Part shown: one piece after another, positions 26,011-51,512 of the stretch
How the letters are laid out: every line of letters starts with the position of its first letter
How positions within the stretch are numbered: position 1 is the first letter of the stretch
The notes under the pieces: model-generated
The model's input: only the letters and a program-made list of their open reading frames with translations
Databases searched by the model: none
What the model was told of the DNA's origin: nothing
Assembly: GCA_964409535.1 (NCBI GenBank)
Contig: CAYPDQ010000001.1
Coordinates: forward strand, 22,993 to 86,992
DNA: 64,000 nt
Direction of reading: 5' to 3'
Source of the DNA: an uncultured Candidatus Saccharibacteria bacterium
GTDB taxonomy: Bacteria > Patescibacteriota > Minisyncoccia > UBA6257 > 2-01-FULL-56-20
Position numbers and translations under genes: made by a program

Positions 26011-26088
26011 GGGTCTTTGCCCGCGAGGACGAGTCCCTTGGCGGCGAAGTCCGAGCGTCGCAAACACCTTAATTTTAACAAAATTGGC

Positions 26089-27174
26089 ATGGATCCGTTT
26101 CTAAAAAACATCCTGGAATTCAACCGCCAGCTTACGACGGCCGGGCTCCAGCTCTCCAACCTCAAGCGGCTGAAAAAAGGCGGCTATGACTCCGTTCTCA
26201 TAGTCGGAATGGGCGGCTCTGGCCTCGCCGGCGAACTTCTGAAAGATGTGCAGGAGGAATTGGGACTCAAGGTTCCGGTTTTCACCTGGAAAGATTACGG
26301 CCTGCCCGAACCGGAAACGTTCGGTGCAAAGAAACCGCTCTACCTCTTCGTCTCTTTCTCCGGCAACACCGAAGAAACACTCTCCGGCTTCAAATCTGCT
26401 CTAAAACCTAAAACCTATAACCTAAAACCTCATTCCATTGCGGCCGTTGCCCACGGCGGCGAACTCGCCCGCCTCGCGAAGCGCGCGGGAGCACCACTGG
26501 TTCTCTTTCCGGCCGCAGATCCCGTTAGAAGTCCGACATTCGGCCCCGCGAATGTCGGCAGAAACCGGGGGTTTCTTACTTCTAACGGGACAGACTTGAA
26601 TCCCAGGCAATATACTGGTAGGATGTTCTACGCACTGATCCAAGTACTCCGGGCCGCCCGCCTTATTTCTTCCGAGCCGCAGACCTACATCCGGCTCCAA
26701 CCCGCGTCTTTCAAAAAGGAGGGTGCATATCTCGCCAAACGCCTTAAGGGCAGGGTCGTGCTCCTCTACACCGACCGGCGAAGCCATGGCCTGGGCTATG
26801 TCTGGAAAGCTAAATTAAACGAAACCGCAAAGCAGCTCGCTTTCCTGAACGCCGTGCCTGAGATGAACCACAACGAGCTCACCGGCCTTGTTTTCCCAAA
26901 AACCAAGCTGGCCGCGCTATTCATAAGCGATACGTCCGCCCCTGCGGCCGGGGCAGGGCGGACGCGGAAAAGAATCCGGATCAATCTCAAACTTTTAAAG
27001 AAGAAAGGGGTGCAAGCAGAGGAAGTTCCGCTCCAGGGCAAGAGCCGGATGGAGAAGATGTGGAATTCCATAATGCTCGCGGACTGGACCGCATACGAAC
27101 TTGCCAAGATGAACGGCGCGGACCCGGCGGAGATCAAAATAGTTGAAGAGTTGAAAAGTTCGATGAAAAAATAA
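26089..27174 (+). CDS. Bifunctional phosphoglucose/phosphomannose isomerase (SIS domains)
   Basis: Start chosen at the internal ATG (MDPFLKNIL). SIS motifs GMGGSGLAGE and SFSGNTEET. Contains a heptamer-repeat insert (LKPKTYNLKP). Confidence 0.7.
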   Translation: MDPFLKNILEFNRQLTTAGLQLSNLKRLKKGGYDSVLIVGMGGSGLAGELLKDVQEELGLKVPVFTWKDYGLPEPETFGAKKPLYLFVSFSGNTEETLSGFKSALKPKTYNLKPHSIAAVAHGGELARLAKRAGAPLVLFPAADPVRSPTFGPANVGRNRGFLTSNGTDLNPRQYTGRMFYALIQVLRAARLISSEPQTYIRLQPASFKKEGAYLAKRLKGRVVLLYTDRRSHGLGYVWKAKLNETAKQLAFLNAVPEMNHNELTGLVFPKTKLAALFISDTSAPAAGAGRTRKRIRINLKLLKKKGVQAEEVPLQGKSRMEKMWNSIMLADWTAYELAKMNGADPAEIKIVEELKSSMKK

Positions 27175-27278: not shown

Positions 27279-29030
27279 ATGATCAAAAAAACAATTAAAA
27301 CCAAAACGGTCTCTCCGCACGGGCGTCTGCACGTCAAGACGGCAAAGATAGCCGAAGACAAAGAGCCGCCGGTGCGCTGGGCGGCTTTGGGCGGCTTGGA
27401 GGAGATCGGCCGGAATATGATGTTCTTGGAGTACAAGAACGAGATCATCATAATTGACGTCGGCTTGCAATTCCCGGAGGAAGAAACACCCGGGGTGGAC
27501 TACATCATCCCCAACGTCTCTTATCTGGAGGCGAGGCGCGATAAGATCCGCGGCATCGTCATCACCCACGGCCACTACGACCACATCGGCGCCCTGCCCT
27601 ACGTTCTGGGGAAACTGGGCAACCCCCCGATATACGCCACCCAGCTCACCAAAGAAATAATCCTGAAGCGGCAGGAGGACTTCCCGAACATGCCCAAGCC
27701 GGTTTTCATCGTGGTCAAAGCCGGCGAGACCCACCAGCTTTCGGAACACTTCATCTTGGAGTTCTTCGCGGTGGAACACAACATTCCGGAGGGCGTAGGC
27801 ATGGTCGTAAGCACTCCGGCTGGCAAAGTTGTCCATCCCGGCGAGTTCAAATTTGACTACGACCGCGACGGCAAACCACGCAATATGGACGTCTGGGAAA
27901 ACGTCGGCAAGCAGGGCATCCACACCCTGTTCCTGGATTCCACCGGCGCGGAAGTCCCGGGTTGGTCCCTTTCCGAACGGGTGGTGGAAGAGGAGCTGGA
28001 GAAACTCTTCCGGGCGGCCAAGGGCAGGATAATCGTCGCGACTTTCGCCTCCCTCCTCGGCCGCATCGCGGAGATCGTGAAGATCGCCGAGCGTCTCGGC
28101 CGGCACATTGCTCTCTCCGGCTATTCCTTGAAAACCAACATGGATATCGCCTTGAGCTTGGGCTACGTCAAGGTAGAACAGGGTACCATAGTCCGGCTGG
28201 AAGACATCCACAAGTACCGGGATGACAAGCTCTTGATCCTCTCCACCGGCGCCCAGGGCGAACCGCGGGCAAGCCTGGTCCGGATCGCAAGCGGCGAGCA
28301 CAAACAGGTTACCTTAAAGAAAACGGATACCGTCATCCTTTCCTCGTCCATCGTCCCGGGGAACGAAGCCAGCGTCCAGATATTAAAGGACAATATCGCC
28401 CGCCAGTGCCCGAACGTTTTCCACTATAAGATGCTGGACATCCATTCGAGCGGCCACGCGCCGATAGAGGAATTAAAGACCGTGATGAAACTGGTGAAAC
28501 CGCATTTTTTCCTTCCGATCCACGGCTATTACTTTATGCGCATGCGGAACGCCCGCCACGCCCAGGAGGTCTTGGGACTGCCGCCGGAGAGAACCATCGT
28601 TGCCGACAACGGCCTAGTAGTAGAAATGCGCAAGGACAGGGTGGTGCTCACCGAAGAACAGGTGCCCGCCTCCTACGTGATGGTGGACGGCTTGGGTGTG
28701 GGCGACGTGGAAGAAGTCGTGCTGCGGGACCGCCGGAGCCTAGCCCAAGAGGGAATGGTCGTCGCCATCGTGACCATAGACCGCAACCGCGGCGGGCGTC
28801 TCCTAAAGAATCCGGACATCATCTCCCGCGGCTTCATCCTCCTCAAAGAGAACCAGGAAATTCTGGAAGGCATCCGCAAGCGCATCCGGGGCATCATTTC
28901 CCGCTTGCCCGCCCACCAGACAGTGGAACCGGACTATCTGAAGGCGCTCATCCGCGACCAGATCGGCCAGTTCCTTTATAACAAGACGAAACGCAGGCCG
29001 ATGATATTGCCCGTGGTTATAGAGATATAG
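27279..29030 (+). CDS. rnj: Ribonuclease J (metallo-beta-lactamase / beta-CASP)
   Basis: HGHYDHIG motif, beta-CASP and RMMBL regions. Start moved to ATG 27279 (MIKKTIKTK) so it does not overlap the tRNA. Confidence 0.85.
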   Translation: MIKKTIKTKTVSPHGRLHVKTAKIAEDKEPPVRWAALGGLEEIGRNMMFLEYKNEIIIIDVGLQFPEEETPGVDYIIPNVSYLEARRDKIRGIVITHGHYDHIGALPYVLGKLGNPPIYATQLTKEIILKRQEDFPNMPKPVFIVVKAGETHQLSEHFILEFFAVEHNIPEGVGMVVSTPAGKVVHPGEFKFDYDRDGKPRNMDVWENVGKQGIHTLFLDSTGAEVPGWSLSERVVEEELEKLFRAAKGRIIVATFASLLGRIAEIVKIAERLGRHIALSGYSLKTNMDIALSLGYVKVEQGTIVRLEDIHKYRDDKLLILSTGAQGEPRASLVRIASGEHKQVTLKKTDTVILSSSIVPGNEASVQILKDNIARQCPNVFHYKMLDIHSSGHAPIEELKTVMKLVKPHFFLPIHGYYFMRMRNARHAQEVLGLPPERTIVADNGLVVEMRKDRVVLTEEQVPASYVMVDGLGVGDVEEVVLRDRRSLAQEGMVVAIVTIDRNRGGRLLKNPDIISRGFILLKENQEILEGIRKRIRGIISRLPAHQTVEPDYLKALIRDQIGQFLYNKTKRRPMILPVVIEI

Positions 29031-32000
29031 CCAGCTTTACGCTTTTGCCGTTTATTCTTATCTCTTCCATGCCTGTCCCGACCTGCCCCGACTGAAACGT
29101 CGGGGCCGCAGCGTCGGGACTTTCGCCTTCGGAAACGCTCCGAAGGTAGGTTTTTTTACGGTCAAACAATTCCAGCGCTTTCTTAACGTCGGTGTCGTCG
29201 GTCTTATAGGTAAGCGCCGCCATTTCTCCCACCTTGAGTCCCTGCTTCTTGCGCAGTTCCTGAACTGCCCGTTCCAAAGCGCGCACCATACCTTCCAGGC
29301 GCAGCTCATCGGAAATCGAGGTGTCCAGATAGAAATTCAGAACCCGAGAGACCCCCGCCATCACTTCTATATTCTCCCCTTTCTCGCTCGAGAGGGTCGG
29401 GTCGAATTTCTTCACGTTCAACTCGCCCAAAAGTACCTGCATCAACTCCGCGCTGGGGGTCATATCTTCCTTGGTGAAGAACGCGAGGCGCGGCAGGGGC
29501 TGGCGCACCGGAACGTTCAGGGTTTTCCTCACCGCCTGGCCCAAGGACGCCGCTTCCCGGACGGTTGCCATATCCCGCAGGAGATCTTTCTCCTCCGGCG
29601 CAAGCTCTCTCGCTTCCGGCCAGTCCGAAAGATGCACCGATTCATCAGGTTTTAGGTTATAGGTTTTAGGTTTTAGATCCTGGTAGATAAGTTCGGAGAT
29701 ATACGGCATAACCGGTGCGATAACTTTGGAGGCGTTCAAAAGCGAGTGCCGCAGAACCGCGAAAAACTCCGTGTCCGTCCGGCCGCGGCTGCGGCGCAAG
29801 TACCAAGTGGAGAGATCGTCAACGTATTCGGAGATAATGCGCGTCGCGCGGACGGTATCGTATCGATCCAGATTTTCAGTCACTCCGTTAACTAACTCCT
29901 GGGTGCGTACGGCTATCCAGCGGTCAAGAATATTCGCGGTCTTCCCGGCCAAGCCGCCCGGCGGCGGCTCGTATCCCGCCTCCGCGGCGTATGTCTGATA
30001 ATAATTGAAGACGTTCCAGAGGATGAGGACCACCTTCCGGTACGTGTTCTGCACCTCTTTCTCGCTGAAGTTCAGATTATCCGCCTGCATCACCACCGAG
30101 TTCGTAAGATAGAAGCGCAACGCATCCACGCCGTATTTATTGATCACCTCCCACGGATCCGGGAAATTGCCTTTGGACTTGCTCATTTTGGAGCCGTCTT
30201 CGGCCAAAATCGTGCCGGTCGTGACCACGTTCTCAAACGGCGCCTTGCCGAAAAGGGCGTAGGAGACGACGTGCATCACGTAGAACCACGCCCGGGTCTG
30301 GGCGATGTATTCCGCCACGAACTGCGCCGGCAGGCGCTTGTCTCCCGACGCTCTCGGTCGGGACCCCGACTCCCGACTCGTCGGGACGTCGGGGAAAAAC
30401 TCCTTATTATCAAAAGGATAGTGATACTCCGCAAAGGGCATTGAGCCCGCTTCCACCCAGGAATCAAAGATTTCCTTTACCCGTCGCGCTTCCCCGCCGC
30501 AGGTCGGGCACTTTAAAACCACATCATCAATGTACGGCCGGTGGAGATCATCAATGCCCACGCTTATCTCAAACGGCTCTCCCGTCCTCGGATAGCCCAG
30601 CTCCGAGCCGTAGTACTTCTGGACCAACCACAGCGGGTCGCCATGGCCGACAATTAGAATCCTCTTGTTTTGGTAATTTTTATCCGCTTCCTTTATGAAG
30701 CTGACCATCCGCGCCTGGATCTCGGTCCATGTTTCCCCGCCCTCCGGCGCTTCCGTCCAACGGTCGCGTTTAGAAGCGAACTCTTCGTGATATTCTTTCT
30801 CACTCCTACCCTCAAAAGTGCCGGTGTTGTACTCCCGCAAGCGCTTGTCGGTCTTTGCCTCCACCCCAAGCACCTTGCCGACGATCTCGGCCGTACGCCT
30901 GGTTCTCAAAAAGTCGGAGGTGAATATTAGGTCCACGCCGCCCTTGGCCTTTATTTTCTCGGCAATTCCCTCCGCCTCTTTCACTCCTTTCTCCGTCAGA
31001 TCATATTTATCATTTTCTGTCCGTCCATTCACGACCTCCCGGACGTTCTTCTCCGCCTCTCCGTGGCGGGTGAAATAGAAAGTATTGGTGCTCAAGCCCA
31101 GTTCCTTAATGCTCCCCACCACAACCGGCGGGCAATTTTTATCACCTGCCTGCGCAGGCAGGCATTTCCAGACCGGAATCGGATTTCCCCAATAGCGGTT
31201 GCGGGAAATGTTCCAGTCCGGCGCGGATTCCACGCTTTTCTCATAGCGGCCGTGCTTCAAATGCTCCGGGAACCAGTTTATCTCCCTGGAGTTGGAGTCA
31301 ATCAGTTCTTTTTTCATCTTCTGGATGTTGATGAACCATGCCGGAATCGCATTGTAGTAGAGAGGATTGCCGCATCTCCAGCAGTGCGGATAGGAGTGGG
31401 TCACTTTTTCTTTGCGTAGAAGCAAGCCACGCTTCTCCAGGTCGGCGATTATGATTGAATCGGCATCTTTGAAATACTTGCCGCGCAGGAATTCCGGCGC
31501 CTTGTCGTTGAACTTGCCTCTGTCGTCCAGCATCGGCACGACCGGGAGCCCAACTTTCTGACCCAACTCGTAGTCCTCTTCGCCATAGACGACCGCAGTG
31601 TGCACGATGCCTGTGCCTTCCTCGGTGGAAACGAAGTCAGCTGCGTACACCTTAAAAGCGGCCTGCCCTTCGGAGCCTTGGCGAAGAATGGGGATGTCAA
31701 AAAGCGGTTCATACTCCAAACCGACGAGTTCCGAGCCCTTGAATTCTTCCACTATGTCATTGCGAGGCGCCGTAGGCACCGCGGCAATCCCTTGAGATTG
31801 TTTCCCGCCACTGCCCTGCATCGCGGTCGCAACGACGGCACTAACCCTATCTTTCGCTAAAATGTAAAACTCCTCCTCAACTCTAACTTTCACGTAATCA
31901 ATCTTTTCTCCCACCGCTAACGCAACGTTTCCAGGCAAGGTCCATGGTGTCGTAGTCCAAGCCAGAAGATAGGTGTTTGGTGTTAGGTTATAGGTTTTAG

Positions 32001-32643
32001 AATCACTTTTAACATTTGAGCTTTTAACCTTGAACTTCACAAAGACGGCGTCTTCCACGACGTCTTTGTATGAATTGTCCATCGCCACTTCAAAGTTGGA
32101 AACCGGCGTCTCGCATCTCGGGCAGTACATCAAAACCTTCCGGCCCTCGTACACCAGCCCTTTGTCGTAAATTTGCTTGAACGCCCACCAGACCGACTCC
32201 ATATAGTCCCTGTCCATCGTCTTGTAGGAGTTCTCAAAGTCAATCCAGCGCGCGATTCGCCGGACCATCTTCCCCCATTCGTCTGCGAACATAAGCACCT
32301 TCTCCCGGCAGGTGCGGTTGAATTTCTCTATCCCGATCTCTTCTATCTGCTTCTTGCCGGAGATGCCCAGTTCCCGCTCCACAACTTCTTCTATCGGCAG
32401 GCCGTGGCAGTCCCAGCCCCAGCGGCGACGGACGAAACGGCCCTTCATCGTCTGGTAGCGGGGAAAGAGGTCTTTGACGGTGGATGCCAAAATATGCCCG
32501 TAGTGCGGGAGGCCGGTAGCAAAAGGCGGCCCGTCGTAAAAAGTGTAGGGCTTGCCGCCTTTAGTCTTCTCTAATGACTTTTGGAAAACCCGGTTCTTTT
32601 CCCAGAAGTCCAGTATCTTTTCTTCCAGCTCTTTCGGATTCAT
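29017..32643 (-). CDS. ileS: Isoleucyl-tRNA synthetase (type 2, eukaryote-like) with an inserted histidine-phosphatase (PGAM-like) domain
   Basis: 1208 aa. HYGH/KMSKS class I motifs, editing domain and zinc-finger CPTCGG. An insert of about 170 aa with an RHGE His-phosphatase signature lies between ...VVVGSIKELG and GIDDLHRPY. Confidence 0.9.
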   Translation of the reverse strand: MNPKELEEKILDFWEKNRVFQKSLEKTKGGKPYTFYDGPPFATGLPHYGHILASTVKDLFPRYQTMKGRFVRRRWGWDCHGLPIEEVVERELGISGKKQIEEIGIEKFNRTCREKVLMFADEWGKMVRRIARWIDFENSYKTMDRDYMESVWWAFKQIYDKGLVYEGRKVLMYCPRCETPVSNFEVAMDNSYKDVVEDAVFVKFKVKSSNVKSDSKTYNLTPNTYLLAWTTTPWTLPGNVALAVGEKIDYVKVRVEEEFYILAKDRVSAVVATAMQGSGGKQSQGIAAVPTAPRNDIVEEFKGSELVGLEYEPLFDIPILRQGSEGQAAFKVYAADFVSTEEGTGIVHTAVVYGEEDYELGQKVGLPVVPMLDDRGKFNDKAPEFLRGKYFKDADSIIIADLEKRGLLLRKEKVTHSYPHCWRCGNPLYYNAIPAWFINIQKMKKELIDSNSREINWFPEHLKHGRYEKSVESAPDWNISRNRYWGNPIPVWKCLPAQAGDKNCPPVVVGSIKELGLSTNTFYFTRHGEAEKNVREVVNGRTENDKYDLTEKGVKEAEGIAEKIKAKGGVDLIFTSDFLRTRRTAEIVGKVLGVEAKTDKRLREYNTGTFEGRSEKEYHEEFASKRDRWTEAPEGGETWTEIQARMVSFIKEADKNYQNKRILIVGHGDPLWLVQKYYGSELGYPRTGEPFEISVGIDDLHRPYIDDVVLKCPTCGGEARRVKEIFDSWVEAGSMPFAEYHYPFDNKEFFPDVPTSRESGSRPRASGDKRLPAQFVAEYIAQTRAWFYVMHVVSYALFGKAPFENVVTTGTILAEDGSKMSKSKGNFPDPWEVINKYGVDALRFYLTNSVVMQADNLNFSEKEVQNTYRKVVLILWNVFNYYQTYAAEAGYEPPPGGLAGKTANILDRWIAVRTQELVNGVTENLDRYDTVRATRIISEYVDDLSTWYLRRSRGRTDTEFFAVLRHSLLNASKVIAPVMPYISELIYQDLKPKTYNLKPDESVHLSDWPEARELAPEEKDLLRDMATVREAASLGQAVRKTLNVPVRQPLPRLAFFTKEDMTPSAELMQVLLGELNVKKFDPTLSSEKGENIEVMAGVSRVLNFYLDTSISDELRLEGMVRALERAVQELRKKQGLKVGEMAALTYKTDDTDVKKALELFDRKKTYLRSVSEGESPDAAAPTFQSGQVGTGMEEIRINGKSVKLAISL

Positions 32644-32900
32644 CCCGTTAGAGACAGGAAACGCCTTAAGCGGTTCTCGAGGTAGCGTTTGCCTGGGCCA
32701 CTCTTTAGGTACTTTTCTCGCGACCTTGCGTCATCTTCATTGAGACACGCCTCGTAGTATACGAGGTTCCAGGGGGCACGGCTCTTAGTCCAGGTTGATT
32801 TGCCTTCGTTATGCTGCTTAAGACGTTTCCGTAAGTCGTTCGTGCTACCGGTGTACCAATAGCTGCTTTTCTTGCTTTGGATAACATAGGTGTAGTACAT
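32640..32900 (-). CDS. GIY-YIG nuclease-family protein (about 86 aa), bounded by terminal inverted repeats
   Basis: MYYTYVIQSKKSSYWYTGSTNDLRKRLKQHN is a canonical GIY-YIG motif. The frame is open up to GTG 32930. 14-bp inverted repeats ATCCCGTTAGAGAC lie at 32641-32655 and 32907-32921. Confidence 0.7.
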   Translation of the reverse strand: MYYTYVIQSKKSSYWYTGSTNDLRKRLKQHNEGKSTWTKSRAPWNLVYYEACLNEDDARSREKYLKSGPGKRYLENRLRRFLSLTG

Positions 32901-32921
32901 AAGCTTGCGGTCTCTAACGGG
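32641..32921. mobile_element. Small TIR-bounded element carrying the GIY-YIG ORF (putative founder of a MITE-like family)
   Basis: The left end TCATCCCGTTAGAGACAGGAAAC and the right end AAGCTTGCGGTCTCTAACGGGAT are inverted copies. The same ends recur without the ORF at 46780-46899, 51438-51512 and, degenerate, at 50906-50936. Confidence 0.55.
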
Positions 32922-32943
32922 ATTAAGCACGAATCTAAAAATA

Positions 32944-34707
32944 TCAGATTTTTTCCGGTGCGGAAATACCGAGGAGGCCGAGGCCGGTTTTCATAACACC
33001 GGCGGCTACGGCGACGAGCGCAAGCCGCGCCTCCCGCCTTTCCTTGTCTTCATCTTTGAGTATCGGCGTGGATTCATAGTAGGAATTAATCGCGTTCGCG
33101 AGTTCGTAGAGATAAACGGCGACGGCATTCGGGGCGCACGCCGCAGCCGCGGATTTCACTGCCTCCGGGAACTCCGCCATTTTCCTGATTAGCGCGAGTT
33201 CATTCTCTTCAATAAGGCGCGCTGCGTTCCACGTTCCACGTTCCACGCCCCGTGATTTGCGCAAGATACTGCGCAAACGTGCATAGGTGTATTGGAGATA
33301 CGGCCCGCTGTCACCCTGGAAAGAGATTGATTTGTCCATGTCAAAAACAATGTCCCGGCCGACGCCCTGTTTCAAGATGGAGTAACGGATGGCGGCCAGG
33401 GCCACTTTTTCTTCTATCTCTTCGCGTTCTCTTTTGGTAAGCTCCTTGCGTTCGGCTACTTTTTTAGCCACCGCTTCTTTCAGCTGGTCAATCAGCGCCT
33501 CCGCGGTGATAACCTCGCCGGTGCGGGAGGACATTTTACCCGAAGGTAAGCGCATCATGCCGTGGCTAAGATGGACTGTTTTCTCCGCCGCTTCCGGCAC
33601 TACCTGCTCCATCGCTTTCAAAACCACTCTGAAGTATTCATTGATTTCGTTTCCGGTCACGATAAACGATGCGTCCGGGTGATACAGGTCAAATTTTTTC
33701 TGGTTCAGTCCCAGCTCCTTGGCCTCATACGTCGGCAAGCCCTGGGAGTTTATAAACACTCTGTTGTGCAGGCCGTACTTCTCGCCGGGAAAGATAATCG
33801 CGCCTTCACTTTTTTGAAACACCTCCGGATGGGCCTTAACGAGCTTCACACCCACCGGTCCAACTTCGCTTTCAAAGAAATAATGGACGAACTTCGTGCC
33901 CAGCCGCCTATAAATCGTCTCAAAATAGTCTAAGCTCCACTTGCGGCCGAGATCGTATAATCTGTTTATTTCTTTGTCTGAACGGTTGTATACCTTGACG
34001 TTTATATCCTCCACTTGCTTCCTTAGCTCATCCTTATCTGGACCACCCCTCAAAGAACCGCTGATATCTTTCATATCGTAAGCGCCAGAGCCAACAGTAT
34101 ATGCATTAGCGAGATATCTTATTTTCTTATCTAGAGCGTCTCCTTTTCTGGGCAAGCTGCCTTGCAAAATATAGAGAATACCCCAAATGGTTTTAGCCAC
34201 ATGCAAACCAACGTCGCCCTGGTAATTCACGCGCAAGACCTTGGCCCCGGCGGCCTCGTGGAGGCGGGCGATGGCTTCGCCGATGACATTGGTCATGAGA
34301 TGCCCAATGTGAAACTGCTTGAACGGGTTGGGGTCGGTGTACTCCACCATCACTTTCTTGCCTTTGAGCAAATCCAGACGGCCATAATCGCGGCTTGCGG
34401 CAATCTGCGCGAACTCCTCTTGGATGGCTTTCTCCGACAGCCAAAAGTTTATGAATCCCGGCGGGGCGACCTGAACATTTTGAATAAATCTCTGCGGGGC
34501 GACTTTCCGGACTCTCTCCGCGATTTCTTCAGCCACCGCCATCGGGCTGCGGCCCTTTTCCTTGGCCAAACGCAAGGCGAGGTTCGTGGAGTAGTGGCCA
34601 AATTCAGATTTAGCAGCCAGAGACAAGTCAAAATCGGCATGTTTGCCTGCCTGCGCAGGCAGGCCTGCCGCCTTCTTCAAGAGTTGAGCAAGCTTTCGCC
34701 GTATCAC
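32944..34707 (-). CDS. argS: Arginyl-tRNA synthetase
   Basis: 587 aa with the HIGH-region (FHIGHLM), Add-1 N-domain and DALR anticodon-binding domain. Confidence 0.9.
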   Translation of the reverse strand: MIRRKLAQLLKKAAGLPAQAGKHADFDLSLAAKSEFGHYSTNLALRLAKEKGRSPMAVAEEIAERVRKVAPQRFIQNVQVAPPGFINFWLSEKAIQEEFAQIAASRDYGRLDLLKGKKVMVEYTDPNPFKQFHIGHLMTNVIGEAIARLHEAAGAKVLRVNYQGDVGLHVAKTIWGILYILQGSLPRKGDALDKKIRYLANAYTVGSGAYDMKDISGSLRGGPDKDELRKQVEDINVKVYNRSDKEINRLYDLGRKWSLDYFETIYRRLGTKFVHYFFESEVGPVGVKLVKAHPEVFQKSEGAIIFPGEKYGLHNRVFINSQGLPTYEAKELGLNQKKFDLYHPDASFIVTGNEINEYFRVVLKAMEQVVPEAAEKTVHLSHGMMRLPSGKMSSRTGEVITAEALIDQLKEAVAKKVAERKELTKREREEIEEKVALAAIRYSILKQGVGRDIVFDMDKSISFQGDSGPYLQYTYARLRSILRKSRGVERGTWNAARLIEENELALIRKMAEFPEAVKSAAAACAPNAVAVYLYELANAINSYYESTPILKDEDKERREARLALVAVAAGVMKTGLGLLGISAPEKI

Positions 34708-36988: not shown

Positions 36989-38053
36989 CTATGGTATTTT
37001 GAAAACGAATGCGCCCCCTCCGCCGGCACCACCCGCCGGATTGCTGTTGCCCGTTGTAGACCCGCCGCCGCCACCACCGTAACTTCCGCTTAGACCGGAG
37101 GTGGTCCAACCTCCTCCTCCGCCGCCGGCGCTTTCGTTATACTGCTTAAAACCATAACCTGCGTCTTTCCAGCCCCAACAGCCTCCGTTTTGACCCGTGT
37201 AGCCGCTTGAGTTTCCCCACGGAGCCGCGCCCGCTGTCACGCCGTTACCACCATAGCCGCCCGCGCCGCCGGAACCGTCGATCTGCCAGTCGCAGGACCC
37301 GCCCGCGCCGCCGCCGCCGCCAGTGCTTCCAGAAACGCTCTCTCCCGCGCCACCCGCAAGGTACGTACCAGCGCCGTTTCCTCCTATTCCACCGCGCGTG
37401 CCCGTGCCAGCCAGTACTTGTCCGTACGTGCCGCCGCTTGGGCAACCCGCACCAGCACCGCCACTAAGCTGGACAATGTAATTCCCAAGATTGTCCCGCA
37501 AACTAGTCTCGCCGCCGCTCGCAGCCGACCCCCCGCCGGCGCCAACCAGCAAGGTGTAGGTTTTAGAGGAGTCAAGCGTTACCGAGGTTTGGAAATTAGT
37601 GCTTGCGCCACCGCCGCCGCCCGGCCCTGAATATCCGCAAAACGGGCCTCCCCCACCACCGCCAGCCGCGCCGCCGAAGGACACGGAGGTACTAGTATTT
37701 ATCGTTATCGTATAGGCGCCCGAGGTCGTGAGCGCCAGCTGGCCAACCCAGAGGTCCTGGCTGCCAGACGCAGCTCCGCTATAGGTGATAATGGGATGGT
37801 CAACGACGGTAGCGCAGCTTGGCTTGCCGGAACGGAAGCGCGACCACTCCGTAGTGGTGTTAGTGGGAACGAAGATCGGCTTACTGCAGTTGTTTGTAAC
37901 CCGCTTCAGGACACCGAATTCGTTGACGTCGGTGTAGTTGCCTACGGTTACCTGGTAACTCGTGGCGGCCTTAAGAAAGGACGCCCCGAAAAACGCAAAA
38001 GCGATAGTGAGAATCAGAATCTTTATTGCATTTATGTCGCGCAACTGCTTCAT
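36989..38053 (-). CDS. Glycine-rich secreted protein
   Basis: 354 aa. Signal peptide followed by long poly-Gly/Ser/Ala tracts. Confidence 0.45.
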   Translation of the reverse strand: MKQLRDINAIKILILTIAFAFFGASFLKAATSYQVTVGNYTDVNEFGVLKRVTNNCSKPIFVPTNTTTEWSRFRSGKPSCATVVDHPIITYSGAASGSQDLWVGQLALTTSGAYTITINTSTSVSFGGAAGGGGGGPFCGYSGPGGGGGASTNFQTSVTLDSSKTYTLLVGAGGGSAASGGETSLRDNLGNYIVQLSGGAGAGCPSGGTYGQVLAGTGTRGGIGGNGAGTYLAGGAGESVSGSTGGGGGAGGSCDWQIDGSGGAGGYGGNGVTAGAAPWGNSSGYTGQNGGCWGWKDAGYGFKQYNESAGGGGGGWTTSGLSGSYGGGGGGSTTGNSNPAGGAGGGGAFVFKIP

Positions 38054-40939: not shown

Positions 40940-41091
40940 AAACGAGGAAAAGCATAACCAAGAGGATACGGATAACCCGACGGGGCAAGATCATCCGGCG
41001 GCCGATGGCGGTGGATCATTTCCGCACCCGCAAGAGTAAAAAGAGCATCCGCAGCAAACGCAAAACCCTCGGTTTGGATTTCCCGCTCTAA
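40936..41091 (+). CDS. rpmI: 50S ribosomal protein L35
   Basis: A 51-aa basic ORF (MKTRKSITKRIRITRRGKIIRRPMAVDHF...) missing from the ORF track because it is under 60 aa. ATGA overlap with infC and the expected position between infC and rplT. Confidence 0.75.
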   Translation: MKTRKSITKRIRITRRGKIIRRPMAVDHFRTRKSKKSIRSKRKTLGLDFPL

Positions 41092-41117
41092 AACCTAACA
41101 CCTAATCACTAATTAGT

Positions 41118-43923: not shown

Positions 43924-46454
43924 TACTCTGCTTTTTGGAACTGGAAATTCTCGCCTGAAAAAACCAACCGGACTTTCTGCCCCCGGACAATGCCTTTCCT
44001 CAAAAGCGTCTCCGCCAAGGGCGCGCGAATTTGGTCATCTATCACCCGCCGCAGGGGCCGTGCGCCGAAAGCCGGGTTGTAGCCCAGTTTTGCGACTTGT
44101 TTGGTTGCGGATGGATCGACATCCAGGTAGATCCCCTGGTCCTCCAAGGCCTTGGCCAGGTCTTTGAGGTTGAGGAGCGCGATCTTCTCCACCTCGGGAG
44201 GCGTGAGGTCCCGGAAGACGATTATCTTGGAAAAGCGATTCAGGAGTTCCGGCTTGAAAACGTCGGTTAGCCGCGCCTTCAGGTACTCCGCGATCTGGCT
44301 CATATTCTGGCCCTGGCGTAGGGCGTCGTTTATGAGGTCGGAATGGGCGTTCGATGTGGCGATGATTATCGTGTTCGTGAAATCCACCGTCCGGCCGAGG
44401 TTGTCGGTCAGGCGCCCGTCGTCCAGAACCTGGAGGAAAAGATGGAGGATATCCGGGAATGCTTTTTCAAATTCGTCCAGGAGCACCAAGCTGTACGGCT
44501 TCTGGAGCACCGCATCGGTCAAGGCCCCGGAGATCGTTCCATCTGGAGAACCGATGAAGCGGTAGAAGCTCTGTTTGTCCTGATATTCGGTCATATCAAA
44601 ACGCACCATTGCCCCCTCCGAGCCGAACTGCACCCGGGCGAGTATCTTCGCGAGCTCCGTCTTGCCAACGCCGGTCGGGCCCACGAAAAGGAACCCGGCG
44701 ATCGGCCCGCCTTTGCGGGCGAGGCCGCTGCGATACTCCCGCAGAGCGTTCGCCACGGCCTTGACCGCTTCTTCCTGGTCTATCAGCCGCTCGTGAATGA
44801 TGTTTTCCAGGTTCAAGAGCTTTTCCGCTTCCGCGCCGGTCGCCTCGTGGATCGGGACATTGATCTTCTCCTCCGCCGCTTTTACAACCTCCTCTGGCCC
44901 CAGGAACTTCCCGCGCCCCTGGGCGACCGCGGCCAAGGCGCTTTTCAAAAGTTCCTCTGCGCTCGTCGGCAGGAACTTGTTCCTAAAATGTTTCTTCGCC
45001 AAACTCACCGCCATCTTCACCGCCCCGAAACTTATGAAAATCCCGGTGCGCGCCTCCAAAAGCAGGGCGTCGTAGATCAAAATTTTCTCCGCCTCCGACT
45101 CGGTCACCTCGTCCACCCGGATGACCTCAAAATTGGACGCGAAGTCGCTCCGCGGCTCTACGAACTGCTTGTATTCCCGCGGCCAAGTCGCGCCGATAAC
45201 CGGGAAAATGTTGCTCTTTAAAATAGGCATCAAGCCGTCCGCGGCGGAAAGGTACTCCGCGCCGGAGGTCTTGACCAGATTGTGAACATCCGGGATGTAG
45301 AGGATGACGTTCCCGGCCATAAATATCTCTTCCGCTATCGTCTGGATACGCTTTTGAACTTCTTCCGGCGAGGCGCCGGCGACAAGTTCTCCTAAGCGCA
45401 GCTCTACTAAGCGCCGGTCGAAAAGTTCCGGCGGAACGTTGTCTTTGGTGAGCTCCAGAGCCAAGTGCGCCACAAGCGTTTCCTTGCCTATCCCGGGTTC
45501 GCCGACTAAAAGCGCATTGGGATCCGTCGGCCTGGAAAGGGTCTCCACAAGCCGCCGGTATTCCGTTTCGTGCCCGACGAGAAACCCAACTTCGTACCTC
45601 CGGGCCGCGTCGGTGAGATCGGAGCTGAACCTGTCCAGGGTCAGGGTCGGACGACTGGTCCAGGCGCGGTTCATAACCCGATGGCGCAAGCCACGCTCGC
45701 CGCCCCGGACTACAGCGCTCAATGTATCCGGCAAGCGCCGCCACCAACCGGAGAATTGACGCCTGGCTCCGCCGAAAATCATCGCGTTCGCGATGTCGCC
45801 GGGCTTCAAAGAGAAAGTGCCGAAGATGCGCTTGACGAACGCGCAGCGCACATAAGGCAAGGCGGAGAAAAGATCGGCTACCTGTATGAATCTCTGCTTG
45901 TCTTCTAAAGCGTTACGCAATGCTTCTTTCATCAATGCCTGGAGTTCGCTTTGGGCCTCGTCCCGCCGGAAACCGCCGTTGCTTTTTCCGCTTTCCTCAA
46001 GCAGGTCTTCCAGTTTCTGCCTGAACTCCGGAAGCGGCACGTCCAAGCGACGCAACCCGTCCTTGACCTCTTTCGCGCCCAAGAGCTGCCTCACTACTTC
46101 CAGGAAAAAATCGCGATCCGTGACCGTTGCCCGGTCGTAAGCGTGCTCGATCACGGAAAAGGCCCGGGGGGTGATAAACCTTGCGAGATTCACTCTGCCG
46201 CTTTGGGGCAATTCGTGAAGCTCTCGATCGGCCTGATGTATGTGGACCACCCGGTCTATGAGAAATAGCGCGACAAGCACCCCCAGCCAGCTCAGCCAGT
46301 TAAGGTCGGAAACCAGGAAGGTAAAGCCGGCGGCAAGGAGGATGAGATAGCTCAAATAGCCCACGACTCGCGTGAGAAGCCGGCCGGGAAGAGTCATCCG
46401 CAGGCGCGGGTCGTCGAAATAGTATTCCGCCGGTTTAGAAACTCCTGAAGGCAT
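43923..46454 (-). CDS. ClpA/ClpB-family AAA+ ATPase with N-terminal transmembrane segments
   Basis: 843 aa with two AAA modules (GEPGIGKET... and GPTGVGKTELAK). Two hydrophobic helices near the N-terminus. The D1 Walker A is atypical (GKE rather than GKT). Confidence 0.75.
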   Translation of the reverse strand: MPSGVSKPAEYYFDDPRLRMTLPGRLLTRVVGYLSYLILLAAGFTFLVSDLNWLSWLGVLVALFLIDRVVHIHQADRELHELPQSGRVNLARFITPRAFSVIEHAYDRATVTDRDFFLEVVRQLLGAKEVKDGLRRLDVPLPEFRQKLEDLLEESGKSNGGFRRDEAQSELQALMKEALRNALEDKQRFIQVADLFSALPYVRCAFVKRIFGTFSLKPGDIANAMIFGGARRQFSGWWRRLPDTLSAVVRGGERGLRHRVMNRAWTSRPTLTLDRFSSDLTDAARRYEVGFLVGHETEYRRLVETLSRPTDPNALLVGEPGIGKETLVAHLALELTKDNVPPELFDRRLVELRLGELVAGASPEEVQKRIQTIAEEIFMAGNVILYIPDVHNLVKTSGAEYLSAADGLMPILKSNIFPVIGATWPREYKQFVEPRSDFASNFEVIRVDEVTESEAEKILIYDALLLEARTGIFISFGAVKMAVSLAKKHFRNKFLPTSAEELLKSALAAVAQGRGKFLGPEEVVKAAEEKINVPIHEATGAEAEKLLNLENIIHERLIDQEEAVKAVANALREYRSGLARKGGPIAGFLFVGPTGVGKTELAKILARVQFGSEGAMVRFDMTEYQDKQSFYRFIGSPDGTISGALTDAVLQKPYSLVLLDEFEKAFPDILHLFLQVLDDGRLTDNLGRTVDFTNTIIIATSNAHSDLINDALRQGQNMSQIAEYLKARLTDVFKPELLNRFSKIIVFRDLTPPEVEKIALLNLKDLAKALEDQGIYLDVDPSATKQVAKLGYNPAFGARPLRRVIDDQIRAPLAETLLRKGIVRGQKVRLVFSGENFQFQKAE

Positions 46455-46782
46455 AGAAGATCAAGATTGGAAGAACGAGTATCCAGACAAGATACGCTGC
46501 GGCGAAGATCGCCGCCCAAAAAAGATACACGCCTACACCGATGATTATCCGCACGGAGCGGAAAATTACGCCCAAGACCCGGCCGATCACGGAGTAGTCC
46601 TTGTACAGGGGTTGGAAGAAGTGTTTCAGAGTTATTTTCACTGCAAATGTCCGGTCCAGATATTCCAAAAGAGCGGTGAACGCATAAGCAAATCGCCGGG
46701 AAGCGTCCACGTACCAATGGTGAAAGAAGTCGGTCAGCCGGAAGAAAAACCGCCCGACAAGATATACCAGGGCAAAGTCCAT
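46435..46782 (-). CDS. Hypothetical membrane protein (2-3 TM)
   Basis: Start taken at ATG 46780-46782 (MDFALVY...), which lies inside the left TIR of a MITE copy. Confidence 0.35.
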   Translation of the reverse strand: MDFALVYLVGRFFFRLTDFFHHWYVDASRRFAYAFTALLEYLDRTFAVKITLKHFFQPLYKDYSVIGRVLGVIFRSVRIIIGVGVYLFWAAIFAAAYLVWILVLPILIFYAFRSF

Positions 46783-46899
46783 CCCGTTAGAGGCAGGAAA
46801 CTTTCGTTTCCGAAGGTTTTGCAAGCCGGTGCGACCACGGCTGTTTCTCCGCCCTGTGCACTATTACCCCACACACAAGCTTGCGGTCTCTAACGGGAT
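46780..46899. mobile_element. MITE-like, ORF-less derivative of the GIY-YIG TIR element
   Basis: CATCCCGTTAGAGGCAGGAAAC ... AAGCTTGCGGTCTCTAACGGGAT. Both ends are nearly identical to the ends at 32641 and 32921, with about 75 bp of unrelated interior. Confidence 0.55.
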
Positions 46900-46920
46900 C
46901 CATGCCTCAATTATACCCTC

Positions 46921-50281: not shown

Positions 50282-50298
50282 ATATCTCGTCTACTGCG

Positions 50299-51417
50299 CT
50301 AATTTACTACAAAGTAATAGACTTCGTAAACCGCGCCGAGGATGAAGACGAGTACCAGGAGATTGACCAGAAGCTTTTGGGCCGCGCTGAACGCAAGCGC
50401 ACGCTTACCCACGAGGAGGATCAGGAGGTACTCCAAGCCAAGGAACACGCCCCCGGCAAGACCGAGAACCTTCAAAAAATCGCCGAAGCCCGCGAGCAAG
50501 AGAAGAGGCGGCAAGAGAAACACCACCGCCGCAGCCAAAAGCCGCGAAGAGCCGAGGTCGTGAACCAGAGAGTTTCTTATCTCCAAGCCAATAGGGATGT
50601 AAGAAGTCCAGATAGCGAAAAACCCCAGAACCACGACCGACAGAAATTTCCACGCTGGCCACTCTCCCAGCCCGCTTACCGTGTCCGGCGTGACCGCAGA
50701 GATAGTTCCAAGTACACCCACGACGAAAAGAAGGTACAAGAAAGCAGCCGCGTAAATCCCTGCGGTCATTGCCCTGCGGGAACTCCCGGACGCCTGCCCC
50801 GCGCGTTTGCTGTAATCGAACGCGGGCTCCACCGCCGTCCAGGCGGCAAGCGAGAAAAGAACCGGGCCGAACGGCAGGAAAATCTCTTTCCAATTGATCG
50901 CCGCGAATCCCGTTAGAGAGTTTTTCTCTAATGGAACGAAAACGCCGAAGAAAACCAAGCCGATTATAAGCGCCATCATCACTGCGCCGAGGAATTCGGA
51001 GAACAAAAGCCGCCGCAGGCCCAAGAGAATGGGGAGTGAACCTGCAAGCCAGAAGAGGAACGTTCCCAAAGTTCTCGTGCCGGGACGGAGGAGTTCGGAA
51101 AATTCCCCGGCGAGTATAAGATAAGTGACGAGCGCCAAGGTCAGGCCTCCGATTATGACCACAACTCCGAAAATCCTCCCGCCAGTCCCAAAATATCTCG
51201 CCGTGAGTCCCAGAAGGCGCTTACTCCCGCCATCCGCCTCCAAAACCCGATAGTACAGGGAGTGGGCGAAGGACAAGAAAAATGCGATTACCGTGAGGTA
51301 CAAGACGCCAAGGAGCCAGCCCGACCGGAGAAACACGTAGGGTAAGGAAAAAAGACCTGCGCCAACCGCGGTCGCTGCGACCAGCACCGCTATCCACACG
51401 AAACGTCCTACTTTCAT
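50299..51417 (-). CDS. APC-superfamily-like amino-acid permease (10-11 TM)
   Basis: 372 aa, polytopic. Contains an in-frame copy of the TIR motif (PLEKNSLTGF) at 50906-50936. Confidence 0.45.
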   Translation of the reverse strand: MKVGRFVWIAVLVAATAVGAGLFSLPYVFLRSGWLLGVLYLTVIAFFLSFAHSLYYRVLEADGGSKRLLGLTARYFGTGGRIFGVVVIIGGLTLALVTYLILAGEFSELLRPGTRTLGTFLFWLAGSLPILLGLRRLLFSEFLGAVMMALIIGLVFFGVFVPLEKNSLTGFAAINWKEIFLPFGPVLFSLAAWTAVEPAFDYSKRAGQASGSSRRAMTAGIYAAAFLYLLFVVGVLGTISAVTPDTVSGLGEWPAWKFLSVVVLGFFAIWTSYIPIGLEIRNSLVHDLGSSRLLAAAVVFLLPPLLLLAGFGDFLKVLGLAGGVFLGLEYLLILLVGKRALAFSAAQKLLVNLLVLVFILGAVYEVYYFVVN

Positions 51418-51437
51418 CAGTAACTTTCGCTTCGTAA

Positions 51438-51512
51438 ATCCCGTTAGAGGCAGCCCGCCCTAAAGGCCCCTCCGGGGCGCGCTTGCGCGCGGGCTCGGCC
51501 TCTAAACGGGAT
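51438..51512. mobile_element. MITE-like copy of the TIR element (75 bp)
   Basis: ATCCCGTTAGAGGC ... GCCTCTAAACGGGAT flanking a GC-rich palindromic interior. Confidence 0.45.

Follow-up and report, generated by a model that had tools for sequence, protein, structure and literature searches.

A nuclease gene between inverted repeats at the start of ileS

The window, the whole 64,000-nucleotide stretch of DNA that was analyzed, contains a small nuclease gene between argS and ileS, enclosed in a repeat-bounded element (copy A; Table 1). The gene reads on the minus strand from an ATG at 32898-32900 to a TGA at 32640-32642, and its product matches the GIY-YIG family of Pfam (PF01541; E=1.2e-18). 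The sequence ATCCCGTTAGAGAC is present exactly at 32642-32655 on the plus strand and at 32910-32923 on the minus strand, giving perfect 14-nt inverted repeats around the nuclease gene; with up to two mismatches, it has 6 matches in the window against 0.41 expected. This confirmed three claims of the initial annotation, namely that an 86-aa GIY-YIG ORF lies between argS and ileS, that inverted repeats bracket it, and that the left repeat end overlaps the nuclease stop (the arm runs from 32642/32643).

Copy A is closely interlocked with ileS. The last four codons of the nuclease gene (SLTG) and its stop are encoded by the arm and the flank, the TGA overlaps the ileS ATG (ATGA), and this ATG consists of the terminal A of copy A joined to the flanking TGAA. 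The TTAA on the argS side is a decayed copy of the start codon upstream.

Table 1. Positions of the element copies, their parts and the adjoining genes in the window
Feature	Position	Strand	Remarks
Copy A, complete ORF-bearing element, 280 bp	32643..32922	-	Terminal T to terminal A; architecture as in ~75 relatives
GIY-YIG nuclease gene, 86 aa	32640..32900	-	Pfam PF01541
Inverted-repeat arm, ileS side	32643..32655		T-CCCGTTAGAGAC on + strand
Inverted-repeat arm, argS side	32910..32922		GTCTCTAACGGG-A on + strand; 9 nt 5' of nuclease ATG (gene orientation)
Direct repeat of copy A, ileS side	32639..32642		TTCA (TGAA in gene orientation)
Direct repeat of copy A, argS side	32923..32926		TTAA; 3/4 positions match
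ileS, host gene	29017..32643	-	Start codon abuts copy A
argS, upstream neighbor of copy A	32944..34707	-	
Copy B, ORF-less, 117 bp	46782..46898	-	Same orientation as A; TCCA at 46778-46781 and 46899-46902 (TGGA in gene orientation)
Copy C, ORF-less, 73 bp	51439..51511		TAAA at 51435-51438 and 51512-51515 (TTTA on opposite strand)
Copy D, degenerate 29-bp mini-hairpin	50908..50936		CGAA at 50904-50907 and 50937-50940
Copy E, ORF-less, 71 bp	26520..26590		CAGA at 26516-26519 and 26591-26594

The nuclease is a single-domain protein, with PF01541 spanning residues 1-67 of 86 (11-77 of the scanned 96-aa ORF), and its AF2 model (pLDDT 83) is one compact domain with a C-terminal helix. The best sequence and fold matches were to UPF0213/YhbQ/YazA (PDB 1zg2, 1ywl) and Slx1; the folds nearest to the model were UPF0213 and then Slx1, and the best match of known structure was UPF0213 1zg2 (E=9e-8; Foldseek E=2e-4). 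Slx1, in contrast, works with Slx4 on branched DNA, and in the one B. subtilis record examined, yazA lies between trmNF and rsmI. Pfam and NCBIfam scans of the element found no domain besides GIY-YIG and no recognized transposase (DDE, HUH, serine/tyrosine recombinase, or casposase), and the NCBIfam group I intron endonuclease model scored 19.6 bits against the nuclease, below its cut-off of 56. More than 100 Patescibacteria (CPR) proteins are 74-88% identical to the window nuclease.

ORF-less copies in the window

Copies B to E carry no nuclease gene. Copy B abuts the ATG of the gene at 46435-46782, and its two ends have 22 and 23 nt in common with those of copy A. Copy C, one arm of which has a 1-nt insertion, lies between two genes and gives the last codons and the stop to an 86-aa gene (51502-51762). 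Both had been placed correctly in the initial annotation, at 46780-46899 and 51438-51512. Copy D lies in frame within a permease gene (50299-51417), and its 29 bp together with the CGAA repeat make 33 nt. It had been described at 50906-50936 as an in-frame copy adding a 10-aa peptide; its sequence and frame were as described, but the added peptide was not supported. Permease homologs aligned at this site have a variable loop of similar length, so a net insertion remains undemonstrated. Copy E together with one repeat makes 75 nt, or 25 codons in frame, in a PGI/PMI (sugar-phosphate isomerase) gene (26017-27174), and this insertion, with clean edges, was missing from 11 of 11 PGI/PMI homologs. 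This fifth copy had previously been overlooked, and the direct repeats had likewise gone unmentioned.

A 4-bp direct repeat flanks each window copy (given for the plus strand in Table 1), with one mismatch at copy A. The hairpin folds of the ORF-less copies B, C, and E were stable (z = -3.8 to -7.9, with E at -7.9), and that of copy D was weak (z = -1.9). A scan with Rfam at its gathering thresholds had no match at the elements, tmRNA and one tRNA being all that it identified in the window.

A family of elements across CPR genomes

The family was sampled in 80 genome loci retrieved by the nuclease protein alone, and the counts below refer to 74 ORF copies, 48 ORF-less copies, and up to 134 elements. 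The ORF was bracketed by CCCGTTAGAG...CTCTAACGGG in ~75 of the 80 loci with nuclease relatives, and exact CCCGTTAGAG in the fetched loci occurred nearly always in convergent pairs. This upheld the association between repeat and ORF that the initial annotation had put forward for a wider search. Counted from the initial C of CCCGTT through the final G of ACGGG, full elements were 273-283 bp long (~75 relatives), with terminal inverted repeats of 13-14 bp of the form Y-CCCGTTAGAGnn ... nnCTCTAACGGG-R. Across 125 elements, inverted-repeat positions -1 to 12 were 92-100% complementary and complementarity collapsed at position 13; compensatory changes were found at position -1 (T.A in 99 and C.G in 29 of 134) and at positions 10, 11, and 12. 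The C-terminus of the nuclease (..FLSLTG) is encoded by the 3' arm.

The ORF-less hairpin elements were 22-190 bp long. One of them (L054:3043) retains the N-terminal codons MFYTYLLQSVKDKRWYTG, and many others retain both subterminal regions. The ORF-less copies arose from the ORF copy by internal deletion. The earlier picture of an ORF-bearing element of ~290 bp with nonautonomous derivatives was thereby borne out, with a length of 280 bp and internal deletion as the origin of the derivatives. The ORF copy is nearly invariant in length and was the only protein-coding form seen; in ~2 Mb of CPR DNA, these arms did not convincingly bound any larger unit, and the search met only with lone arms here and there, carrying one mismatch, the interiors of which were not inspected for a transposase.

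Nuclease identity was 65-88% across distant CPR lineages. The ORF was intact in 63 of 74 copies and broken in ~7 of 74. In the nuclease alignment, the columns of Y15, R36, H40, and E60 were invariant and those of Y26 and N86 nearly so; from knowledge of the GIY-YIG fold, we take these to be the catalytic residues. The intact ORFs and invariant columns, in so far as an alignment can reveal it, reflect selection on the nuclease protein. A tblastn search of plasmids with the nuclease gave only three weak UPF0213-type matches, and viral contigs held four distant relatives (41-53%), with exact CCCGTTAGAG absent from the viral contigs holding them.

Target duplication and insertion at start codons

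When the elements were delimited by their Y...R ends, an exact 4-bp repeat flanked 67 of 134 and a 3-bp repeat a further 18, compared with 24.7 and 10 for shuffled left and right partners; 42 of the 134 had no exact repeat. Target-site duplications, proposed earlier as something to look for at each copy, are thus present well above the level of shuffled partners. For copy E, the length of the PGI insertion agrees, its 75 nt being the 71-nt element plus 4. The flanking repeat is typically TGAA, derived from a gene start that reads A|TGAA, and neighboring elements in tandem arrays have one TGAA in common. The flanks can be parsed in more than one way: many copies also fit arms of 14 nt with a 2-bp repeat, or a repeat of 5 bp plus one base. 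A 6-bp duplication was rejected, since position 6 of the flank hexamers matched at chance only (24-31%).

Of the 74 ORF copies, 61 have an ATG or GTG immediately after the 3' arm, as do 24 of the 48 ORF-less copies; most of the ORFs beginning at this rebuilt start are 90-1208 aa. The sequence GGGATGA, in which the nuclease stop overlaps the rebuilt start, was found in 52 of the 74 ORF copies. Host genes at insertion starts include those for a dTDP-sugar isomerase and a 67-aa protein, in addition to ileS. The idea that the nuclease ORF always begins at the upstream ATG was discarded, as the two shared a reading frame in just 28 of the 74 copies. The bias toward start codons could partly result from post-insertion selection in gene-dense genomes and not from targeting.

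Empty sites and recent movement

Orthologous sites without an element were found at the ileS site, the 46.8-kb site, and the 26.5-kb coding insertion, so the comparison of empty and filled sites suggested in the initial annotation came out in favor of insertion. Four ileS orthologs (65-77% identity) lack the element. The argS-ileS order is kept in L171, L173, and L174; L172 has, before ileS, a partial gene without a Pfam call, the TAG of this preceding gene lying 4 nt from the ileS ATG. At the 46.8-kb site, ~43 orthologs of the gene at 46435-46782 are empty, with a plain TATAAT-N7-ATG. This site is filled only in the window and in one other locus (L099), and the two elements differ in interior and in repeat (TGGA versus TGAA), which points to independent hits on the same start codon.

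Copies were also nearly identical within genomes. One MAG has three copies that are 99.6-100% identical over 275 bp in unrelated flanks, and two copies at L086 are 99.3% identical. On the strength of these comparisons, the elements constitute a family of recently mobile miniature DNA elements of the Patescibacteria, which are ultra-small bacteria.

The repeat could in principle be a widespread hairpin, acting in termination or regulation and having nothing to do with the gene, given the stable folds of copies B, C, and E and the position of copy C between two genes. The data on association and insertion already refute this explanation: the repeat goes with the ORF, it occurs as in-frame coding insertions, most copies lie at gene starts and not at ends, direct repeats and empty sites accompany it, and it has no Rfam match.

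Patchy occupancy of orthologous sites is also what a free-standing GIY-YIG homing endonuclease would produce by cleaving empty alleles, with recombinational repair, in which case the inverted repeats would be incidental. I-TevI and the Seg homing endonucleases likewise have the GIY-YIG catalytic fold in a selfish element, and free-standing phage GIY-YIG genes are known as compact insertions between genes with overlapping stop and start. However, the 86-aa protein has no DNA-binding module and the element no intron, and homing yields no target duplications, ORF-less derivatives with terminal inverted repeats (TIRs), or identical copies in unrelated flanks. We therefore consider homing highly improbable.

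Relation to Ssn and other known systems

Single-domain GIY-YIG nucleases flanked by dispersed hairpin repeats have been described as the Ssn family; the nuclease binds a hairpin in single-stranded DNA (ssDNA) and cuts beside it, and a resemblance to insertion sequences was noted (Chenal et al., Nat Commun 2025, PMC11893778). The earlier statement that no such family had been described is outdated in this respect. The terms Patescibacteria, duplication, and start codon are absent from the main text of that paper, which shows neither transposition signatures nor a split-stem architecture (PMC11893778), and no account of the element turned up in the open-access literature on GIY-YIG in Patescibacteria/CPR, MITEs, REPINs, and start codons.

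The two systems have in common a single-domain GIY-YIG protein of ~90 aa, a gene within inverted hairpin-forming repeats that are also dispersed in the genome, and a hairpin base of ATCCC...GGGAT. Alignment of the window-family nuclease with genuine Ssn by hhalign (probability 97.9%, 31% identity) supports homology of the core, without a cd10448 subfamily assignment. A CPR HMM scored Ssn at 30-42 bits and UPF0213 YazA at 48.6, and an Ssn HMM scored the window protein at 39.5 and YazA at 36.5; these are HMM scores only, without a CDD search or phylogeny. In contrast, the C-terminal third of the protein is unlike Ssn, and each Ssn flank is a full 28-31-nt hairpin with a 5' CGTC tail, whereas the two flanks of the CPR element are halves of one stem with the gene in the loop. 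The SRM consensus, scanned as the regular expression HGTCWYN(0-2)YYVSBRHN(0-5)WNVSBRGN(0-2)RNCYNB, had 0 matches in the window, and 1.2 Mb of CPR loci gave 8; among the controls, there were 3-7 matches per 1.5-kb locus at four of the five loci examined and none at Planktothrix L181. Neither this consensus nor the published NTS motif matched the CPR arms, which are half-stems of another sequence.

The core homology raises the alternative that the nuclease is a domesticated, Ssn-type host enzyme acting on ssDNA, for example limiting the integration of transforming DNA like SsnA in Neisseria, with hairpins kept by the host as recognition sites and transposon-like traits surviving as relics of an ancient element. 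Such domestication has been proposed for NTS-ssnA-NTS (PMC11893778), and both the conservation of the nuclease across distant CPR lineages and the hairpin base common to the SRM repeats would be consistent with it. On the other hand, near-identical copies occupy unrelated loci of one genome, orthologous sites are patchily filled, some ORFs are broken, the neighboring host genes vary by genome, and insertions occur within coding sequence, all of which indicates an element that is still mobile and not a fixed host function. A host system alone thus seems unlikely, although it and a mobile element are not mutually exclusive.

Other systems resemble the element in part. REP/REPIN-RAYT and IS200/IS605 also place a small nuclease gene within inverted palindromic repeats, have dispersed gene-less hairpins, and likely use a single-stranded hairpin substrate. 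The REP/RAYT enzyme is an HUH Y1 transposase and not GIY-YIG, so the resemblance is one of analogy; REP/REPIN insertion is extragenic, whereas the element inserts at start codons and even in coding sequence, and IS200/IS605 makes no duplication, whereas the element makes one of 4 bp. MITEs (Correia/CREE, RUP, BOX, ERIC) are short TIR-bounded nonautonomous units with target duplication, and Rickettsia palindromic elements insert in frame in protein genes, as copy E does. Unlike these, the element has a presumed autonomous partner of only ~280 bp that encodes a nuclease instead of a transposase and rebuilds the host start codon.

A model for movement

We consider it probable that the whole is explained by a family of miniature mobile elements, including movement driven by the nuclease. 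The analysis established the anatomy, the duplication, and the empty and filled sites, as well as that copying was recent and that the ORF-less copies arose by deletion; the nuclease as the mobilizing enzyme is inferred. In this model, by analogy with Ssn, the nuclease would recognize the stem formed by both arms in ssDNA or a cruciform and cut at its base, both binding and cleavage being inferences. The site strongly preferred for insertion is A|TGAA where the coding sequence of a host gene begins, and the nuclease gene is always co-directional with the host gene. A 4-nt staggered break in the target, with host repair or ligation, would complete the insertion, which duplicates 4 bp, sometimes 3. 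The original ATG remains upstream and begins either a short leader or a version of the nuclease with 95 aa ("MNPVRD"), while the terminal A/G of the element and the duplicated TGAA make a new ATG or GTG for the host gene. Because the nuclease TGA overlaps the rebuilt ATG, the host gene may remain translatable by coupling from the nuclease stop; expression and coupling are likewise inferred.

The lack of a separate DNA-binding domain in the 86-aa nuclease is a point against movement driven by it. To our knowledge, GIY-YIG enzymes are hydrolytic nucleases, and we know of none that performs strand transfer or joins DNA. TIRs with a fixed short duplication, here of 4 bp, are also the classical signature of DDE transposons, and the hairpins may instead be ordinary MITEs moved in trans by a DDE-type transposase elsewhere, with the GIY-YIG gene as captured cargo. 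A trans-acting transposase is not excluded, since only contigs were examined. However, the arm itself encodes the C-terminal codons of the ORF, the ORF-less copies derive from the ORF copy, that copy is of near-invariant length and the only protein-coding form seen, and no convincing larger unit with these arms was found in the CPR DNA searched, with the reservation about lone arms given above. We accordingly regard movement in trans as quite unlikely.

A stronger version of nuclease-driven movement is offered only tentatively, as a possibility we do not yet lean toward: the GIY-YIG nuclease would be the sole enzyme encoded by a new class of ~280-bp transposon, which would move via an intermediate of ssDNA or hairpin form, be guided to start codons within A|TGAA, and carry a start-rebuilding base. 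Insertion would then be nearly harmless, because the element brings the base that restores the start codon. By extension, the many "hypothetical GIY-YIG proteins" of the large Ssn/COG2827 assemblage would be transposases, either active or domesticated. At ~280 bp, the element would rank among the smallest autonomous mobile elements known to us.

Implications

If the nuclease does move the element, GIY-YIG would join the DDE, HUH, serine, tyrosine, and Cas1-type catalysts of transposition, and the lower size limit of an autonomous mobile element would move to 280 bp with a protein of 86 aa. Three features make up the strategy at start codons: TGAA is duplicated, a terminal A/G recreates ATG/GTG, and a stop overlaps the host start. 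This is a compact way to enter reduced genomes that are dense in genes while leaving the host alive. Signatures of transposition that the Ssn study lacked, namely duplications, empty sites, and deletion derivatives, are also provided by the element. A hairpin-guided nuclease with a defined 13-bp stem is predicted and may serve as an ssDNA tool.

The element offers an explanation for the many near-identical "GIY-YIG nuclease family protein" genes across CPR phyla that have been scored as horizontally transferred. CPR annotation is affected as well: starts are mis-called, peptides are inserted in frame, and spurious N-terminal extensions arise, as in the "MNPVRD" calls of 95 aa.

The GIY-YIG gene and its inverted repeats

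The small ORF lies on the minus strand in the order argS, GIY-YIG ORF, ileS, and its stop codon overlaps the ileS start (ATGA). The initial annotation had described this 86-aa gene as bracketed by inverted repeats; this was confirmed by its Pfam match and by exact ATCCCGTTAGAGAC sites on both sides, at 32642-32655 (+) and 32910-32923 (-). With up to two mismatches allowed, ATCCCGTTAGAGAC has six matches in the window against 0.41 expected, and the remaining matches mark the ORF-less units already reported at 46.8, 50.9, and 51.4 kb. A fifth unit (copy E), which had gone unnoticed, was found with a shorter-core search and a repeat finder. Folding of the units as single strands gives long hairpins for the three longer ORF-less ones (z = -3.8, -4.8, and -7.9) and only a weak structure for the 29-bp unit of the permease gene (z = -1.9). 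A regulatory hairpin as the explanation of the repeat was refuted. Among relatives of the window's proteins, the best-named come from Parcubacteria/Liptonbacteria metagenome-assembled genomes (MAGs), which places the source organism in the Patescibacteria (CPR).

Features of the window (positions in nucleotides)
Feature	Position	Strand	Remark
argS	32944-34707	-	Upstream neighbour of the small ORF
GIY-YIG ORF, 86 aa	ATG 32898-32900, TGA 32640-32642	-	Pfam PF01541, E=1.2e-18
ileS	29017-32643	-	Downstream of the small ORF
ORF-less copy B	46782-46898
ORF-less copy C	51439-51511
ORF-less copy D	50908-50936		In permease gene
ORF-less copy E	26520-26590		In PGI/PMI gene
AGGTTTTAGGTTATAGGTTTTAGG repeat	26400-26430, 29647-29677, 31978-32001, 54749-54772; weaker 37557-37590, 41064-41097
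Large serine recombinase, two ORFs	48676-49068; 49114 onward		Resolvase domain; Recombinase + Zn ribbon; in 47600-50300 island
98-nt inverted repeat	48344-48441 / 50114-50211		In 47600-50300 island

A search for relatives of the nuclease returned 2309 proteins (90% identity clusters, E <= 0.001), the top 120 of which share 73-88% identity with it and represent many lineages of the CPR (Patescibacteria). Many relatives are annotated as 95-aa proteins with the N-terminus MNPVRD, which is the translated upstream arm (ATG-AAT-CCC-GTT-AGA-GAC), while the downstream arm encodes the invariant C-terminus FLSLTG. From a one-genome-per-species scan, 564 loci were confirmed and 80 kept for analysis. The predicted association of repeat and ORF held, with CCCGTTAGAG...CTCTAACGGG enclosing the ORF in ~75 of the 80 as an element of 273-283 bp (first C of CCCGTT to last G of ACGGG). 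Across all fetched loci, the exact 10-mer of the arm occurs almost exclusively as convergent pairs. End-to-end complementarity is 92-100% from positions -1 to 12 but breaks down at position 13; pairing at position -2 is seen in 68-83%, and compensatory changes connect the arms at -1, 10, 11, and 12 (T.A/C.G; G.C/A.T/T.A and so on). Together these patterns delimit an inverted repeat of 13-14 bp, Y-CCCGTTAGAGnn. As judged from these comparisons, the repeat belongs to the nuclease gene across a phylum-level radiation. Near-identical elements were also seen on contigs binned as Planctomycetes, Syntrophales, Omnitrophica, Clostridia, and one Woesearchaeota archaeon (loci L075, L079, L052, L059, L066, and L087), reflecting either mis-binned CPR contigs or transfer past the CPR.

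In the AlphaFold model of the nuclease (pLDDT 83), a three-stranded sheet is combined with three helices, and the helix at the C-terminus is long and basic; we read the predicted fold as the GIY-YIG beta-beta-alpha-beta-alpha core. Among solved structures, the UPF0213 protein BH0048 is the closest, followed by Slx1 and the I-TevI catalytic domain. Alignment columns Y15, R36, H40, and E60 are invariant and Y26 and N86 nearly so; from knowledge of the fold, we interpret these as the catalytic residues. The protein contains no further domain, whether transposase, DNA-binding, or other. That the unit is a homing endonuclease gene is one rival explanation.

Signatures of transposition

The initial annotation had proposed target-site duplications and empty sites as checks, and both were found. 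With the element ends set at Y...R, an exact 4-bp flanking repeat is present in 67 of 134 non-redundant elements and a 3-bp repeat in 18, compared with 24.7 and 10 when each left flank is matched with the right flank of another element. This excess means that each insertion has its own repeat, beyond any common target preference. In gene orientation, the repeats of the five window copies are TTAA/TGAA (one mismatch), TGGA, TTTA, CGAA, and CAGA.

The element is absent at the four closest ileS orthologs (65-77% identity). Three of these relatives (L171, L173, and L174) retain argS upstream of ileS, and in L172 the ileS ATG lies 4 nt after the TAG of the preceding gene. Among about 45 orthologous loci recovered for the gene downstream of copy B, the site is filled only in the window and in locus L099; all others have a plain TATAAT-N7-ATG(G/A)A(T/C). 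The two interiors are unrelated and each repeat fits its gene's own start (TGGA in the window, TGAA in L099), which makes these independent insertions at one start codon. Copy E is an exact 25-codon insertion (75 nt; 71-nt element plus 4-bp repeat) that is missing in 11 of 11 aligned PGI/PMI homologs (46-78% identity).

Copies also recur within genomes: one Saccharibacteria MAG has, between unrelated flanks, three ORF copies with 99.6-100% identity over 275 bp, and two copies in L086 share 99.3% identity. The nuclease-selected loci hold 52 ORF-less units (22-187 bp), many of which retain subterminal sequences of the ORF copy; one (L054:3043) still codes for nuclease residues 1-18. In 767 kb of CPR DNA selected by an unrelated gene, UDG, there were 12 ORF-less copies and no ORF copies, a density ~2.7-fold below that of nuclease-selected loci. 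Taken together, the flanks, empty sites, and copy comparisons show that the unit is bounded by TIRs, is flanked by a short target duplication, is polymorphic among relatives, was recently copied, and is accompanied by deletion derivatives.

One widespread ORF-less subfamily has an interior that starts GCCGCGATCGC, ends GATCGCGATCTGC, and contains a GCGATCGC palindrome (L018, L057, L065, L068, L071, L082, L084, L095, and L153). Separately, copy C supplies an 86-aa EF-Tu-domain-2-like gene with its last two codons and TAG stop (..KVYPV*; 51502-51515). Relatives of this gene end in ..VYEA* or ..VYKA*, and the original stop position is now AAA in the window, which suggests decay after the insertion.

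Insertion at and rebuilding of start codons

The commonest flanks are atgaaT|CCC...GGG|Atgaa. Of 74 ORF copies, 61 have an ATG or GTG immediately after the 3' arm, as do 24 of 48 ORF-less copies. The frames that begin there are mostly 90-1208 aa long and are thus real host genes; among them are ileS, a gene for a dTDP-sugar isomerase, and one of 67 aa. Comparison of filled with empty sites, in which the target A|TGAA|N becomes A-TGAA-[T...A]-TGAA-N, shows that the original host ATG remains upstream and that the element's last base and the duplicated TGAA form a new ATG. Elements ending C...G make GTG instead (e.g., L072, L065, and L068). Of the 74 copies, 52 have the nuclease stop overlapping the rebuilt start (GGGATGA), 63 have a nuclease ORF that is intact from its internal ATG, and 28 have the upstream ATG in frame with that ORF. 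Two frames of CTCTAACGGGATGA contain stops (TAA and TGA) and the third enters the host gene, so that ribosomes starting at the old ATG would either stop a few nucleotides from the new start or produce an in-frame fusion. The arrangement is evident in the sequence itself, and its function is an inference.

No ORF copy was seen in opposite orientation to its abutting gene, and orientation to the abutting start codon was constant in 8 of 8 members of the GCCGCGATCGC...GATCGCGATCTGC subfamily. Tandem arrays with a single common TGAA (L087/L089, L054, L020, and L042) show that a rebuilt site can be struck again. The element thus lies preferentially, and in one orientation, on start codons and rebuilds them; whether the bias comes from targeting, selection, or both is undecidable here.

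In orthologs of the gene at 46435-46782, a TATAAT box lies 7-8 nt upstream of the ATG without a Shine-Dalgarno sequence (window 46899-46925 and orthologous loci), so their mRNAs are probably leaderless. A TATAAT-type box lies within 16 nt at 24 of 59 element-occupied starts, and leaderless gene starts may be favoured by the element.

Relation to Ssn nucleases and proposed mechanism

The observation of the initial annotation and its reading as a mobile element were upheld. It knew of no comparable family, however, and this no longer holds, since Ssn nuclease/hairpin-repeat systems were described in 2025 (PMC11893778). Ssn proteins are single-domain GIY-YIG nucleases of about 94 aa (CDD cd10448) that bind an NTS/SRM hairpin repeat in single-stranded DNA and cut beside it; such repeats flank the gene on both sides in 42% of homologs and reach up to hundreds of copies per genome (PMC11893778). 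Its authors note that NTS-ssnA-NTS resembles an insertion sequence and may be domesticated, and a domesticated Ssn-like host function is likewise a rival explanation for the CPR element. The words "duplication," "start codon," and "Patescibacteria" are absent from the main text of that paper. No description of the element was found in the searchable literature; as far as that literature shows, its transposition signatures and start-codon rebuilding are undescribed.

Ssn loci of N. gonorrhoeae, Azospirillum, Rhizobium, Photobacterium, and Planktothrix were fetched from public records. Seven NTS copies surround the N. gonorrhoeae gene. SRM hairpins lie close to the gene in Photobacterium and on either side of it in Azospirillum and Rhizobium; in Planktothrix, the 1.5 kb fetched contains no SRM hairpin. 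The CPR nuclease core is homologous to Ssn (hhalign 97.9%, 31% identity). Its profile scores 48.6 bits against UPF0213/YazA and 30-42 bits against Ssn (reciprocally, the Ssn profile gives 39.5 for the window protein and 36.5 for YazA), placing it equally close to both, with subfamily membership unresolved. Both systems have ATCCC...GGGAT at the stem base, but the CPR arms do not fit the SRM consensus as published, and Ssn cassettes carry a whole hairpin at each end, whereas the CPR ends are two halves of one stem. As read from sequence, the element is a distinct, demonstrably mobile variant of these recently described systems. In Azospirillum lipoferum plasmid AZO_p3 (L180, 255.4-256.0 kb), a proteobacterial ssn-type gene lies between sufB and sufC, with paired SRM hairpins on either side of it; the arrangement resembles an insertion in a conserved operon, hinting that Ssn cassettes are mobile too.

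We propose that the nuclease is the mobilising agent and, by analogy with Ssn, would recognise the arm-formed stem in single-stranded or cruciform DNA. A 4-nt staggered break and host repair would yield the duplication, and the host gene would be expressed through translational coupling. We know of no GIY-YIG enzyme able to join DNA, so integration must rely on host functions or an unseen partner. This missing joining chemistry is the main weakness of the nuclease-based model, and mobilisation in trans by a classical transposase is a further rival.

Other features of the window

A second dispersed repeat, AGGTTTTAGGTTATAGGTTTTAGG, has six hits against none expected. It lies in frame within PGI (ALKPKTYNLKPH) and twice within ileS (SKTYNLTPNTY and KPKTYNLKPDE), and may be a further family of mini-insertions tolerated in coding sequence. 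An island of roughly 2.7 kb (47600-50300) lies between the UDG gene and tRNA-Arg (50207-50281); since the tRNA directly adjoins UDG in three comparison loci (L112, L114, and L117), it looks like an integrated element. Finally, a histidine-phosphatase domain (PF00300) is inserted in ileS, as it is in the closest relatives (L171-L174), and several relatives have the gene annotated in two pieces.
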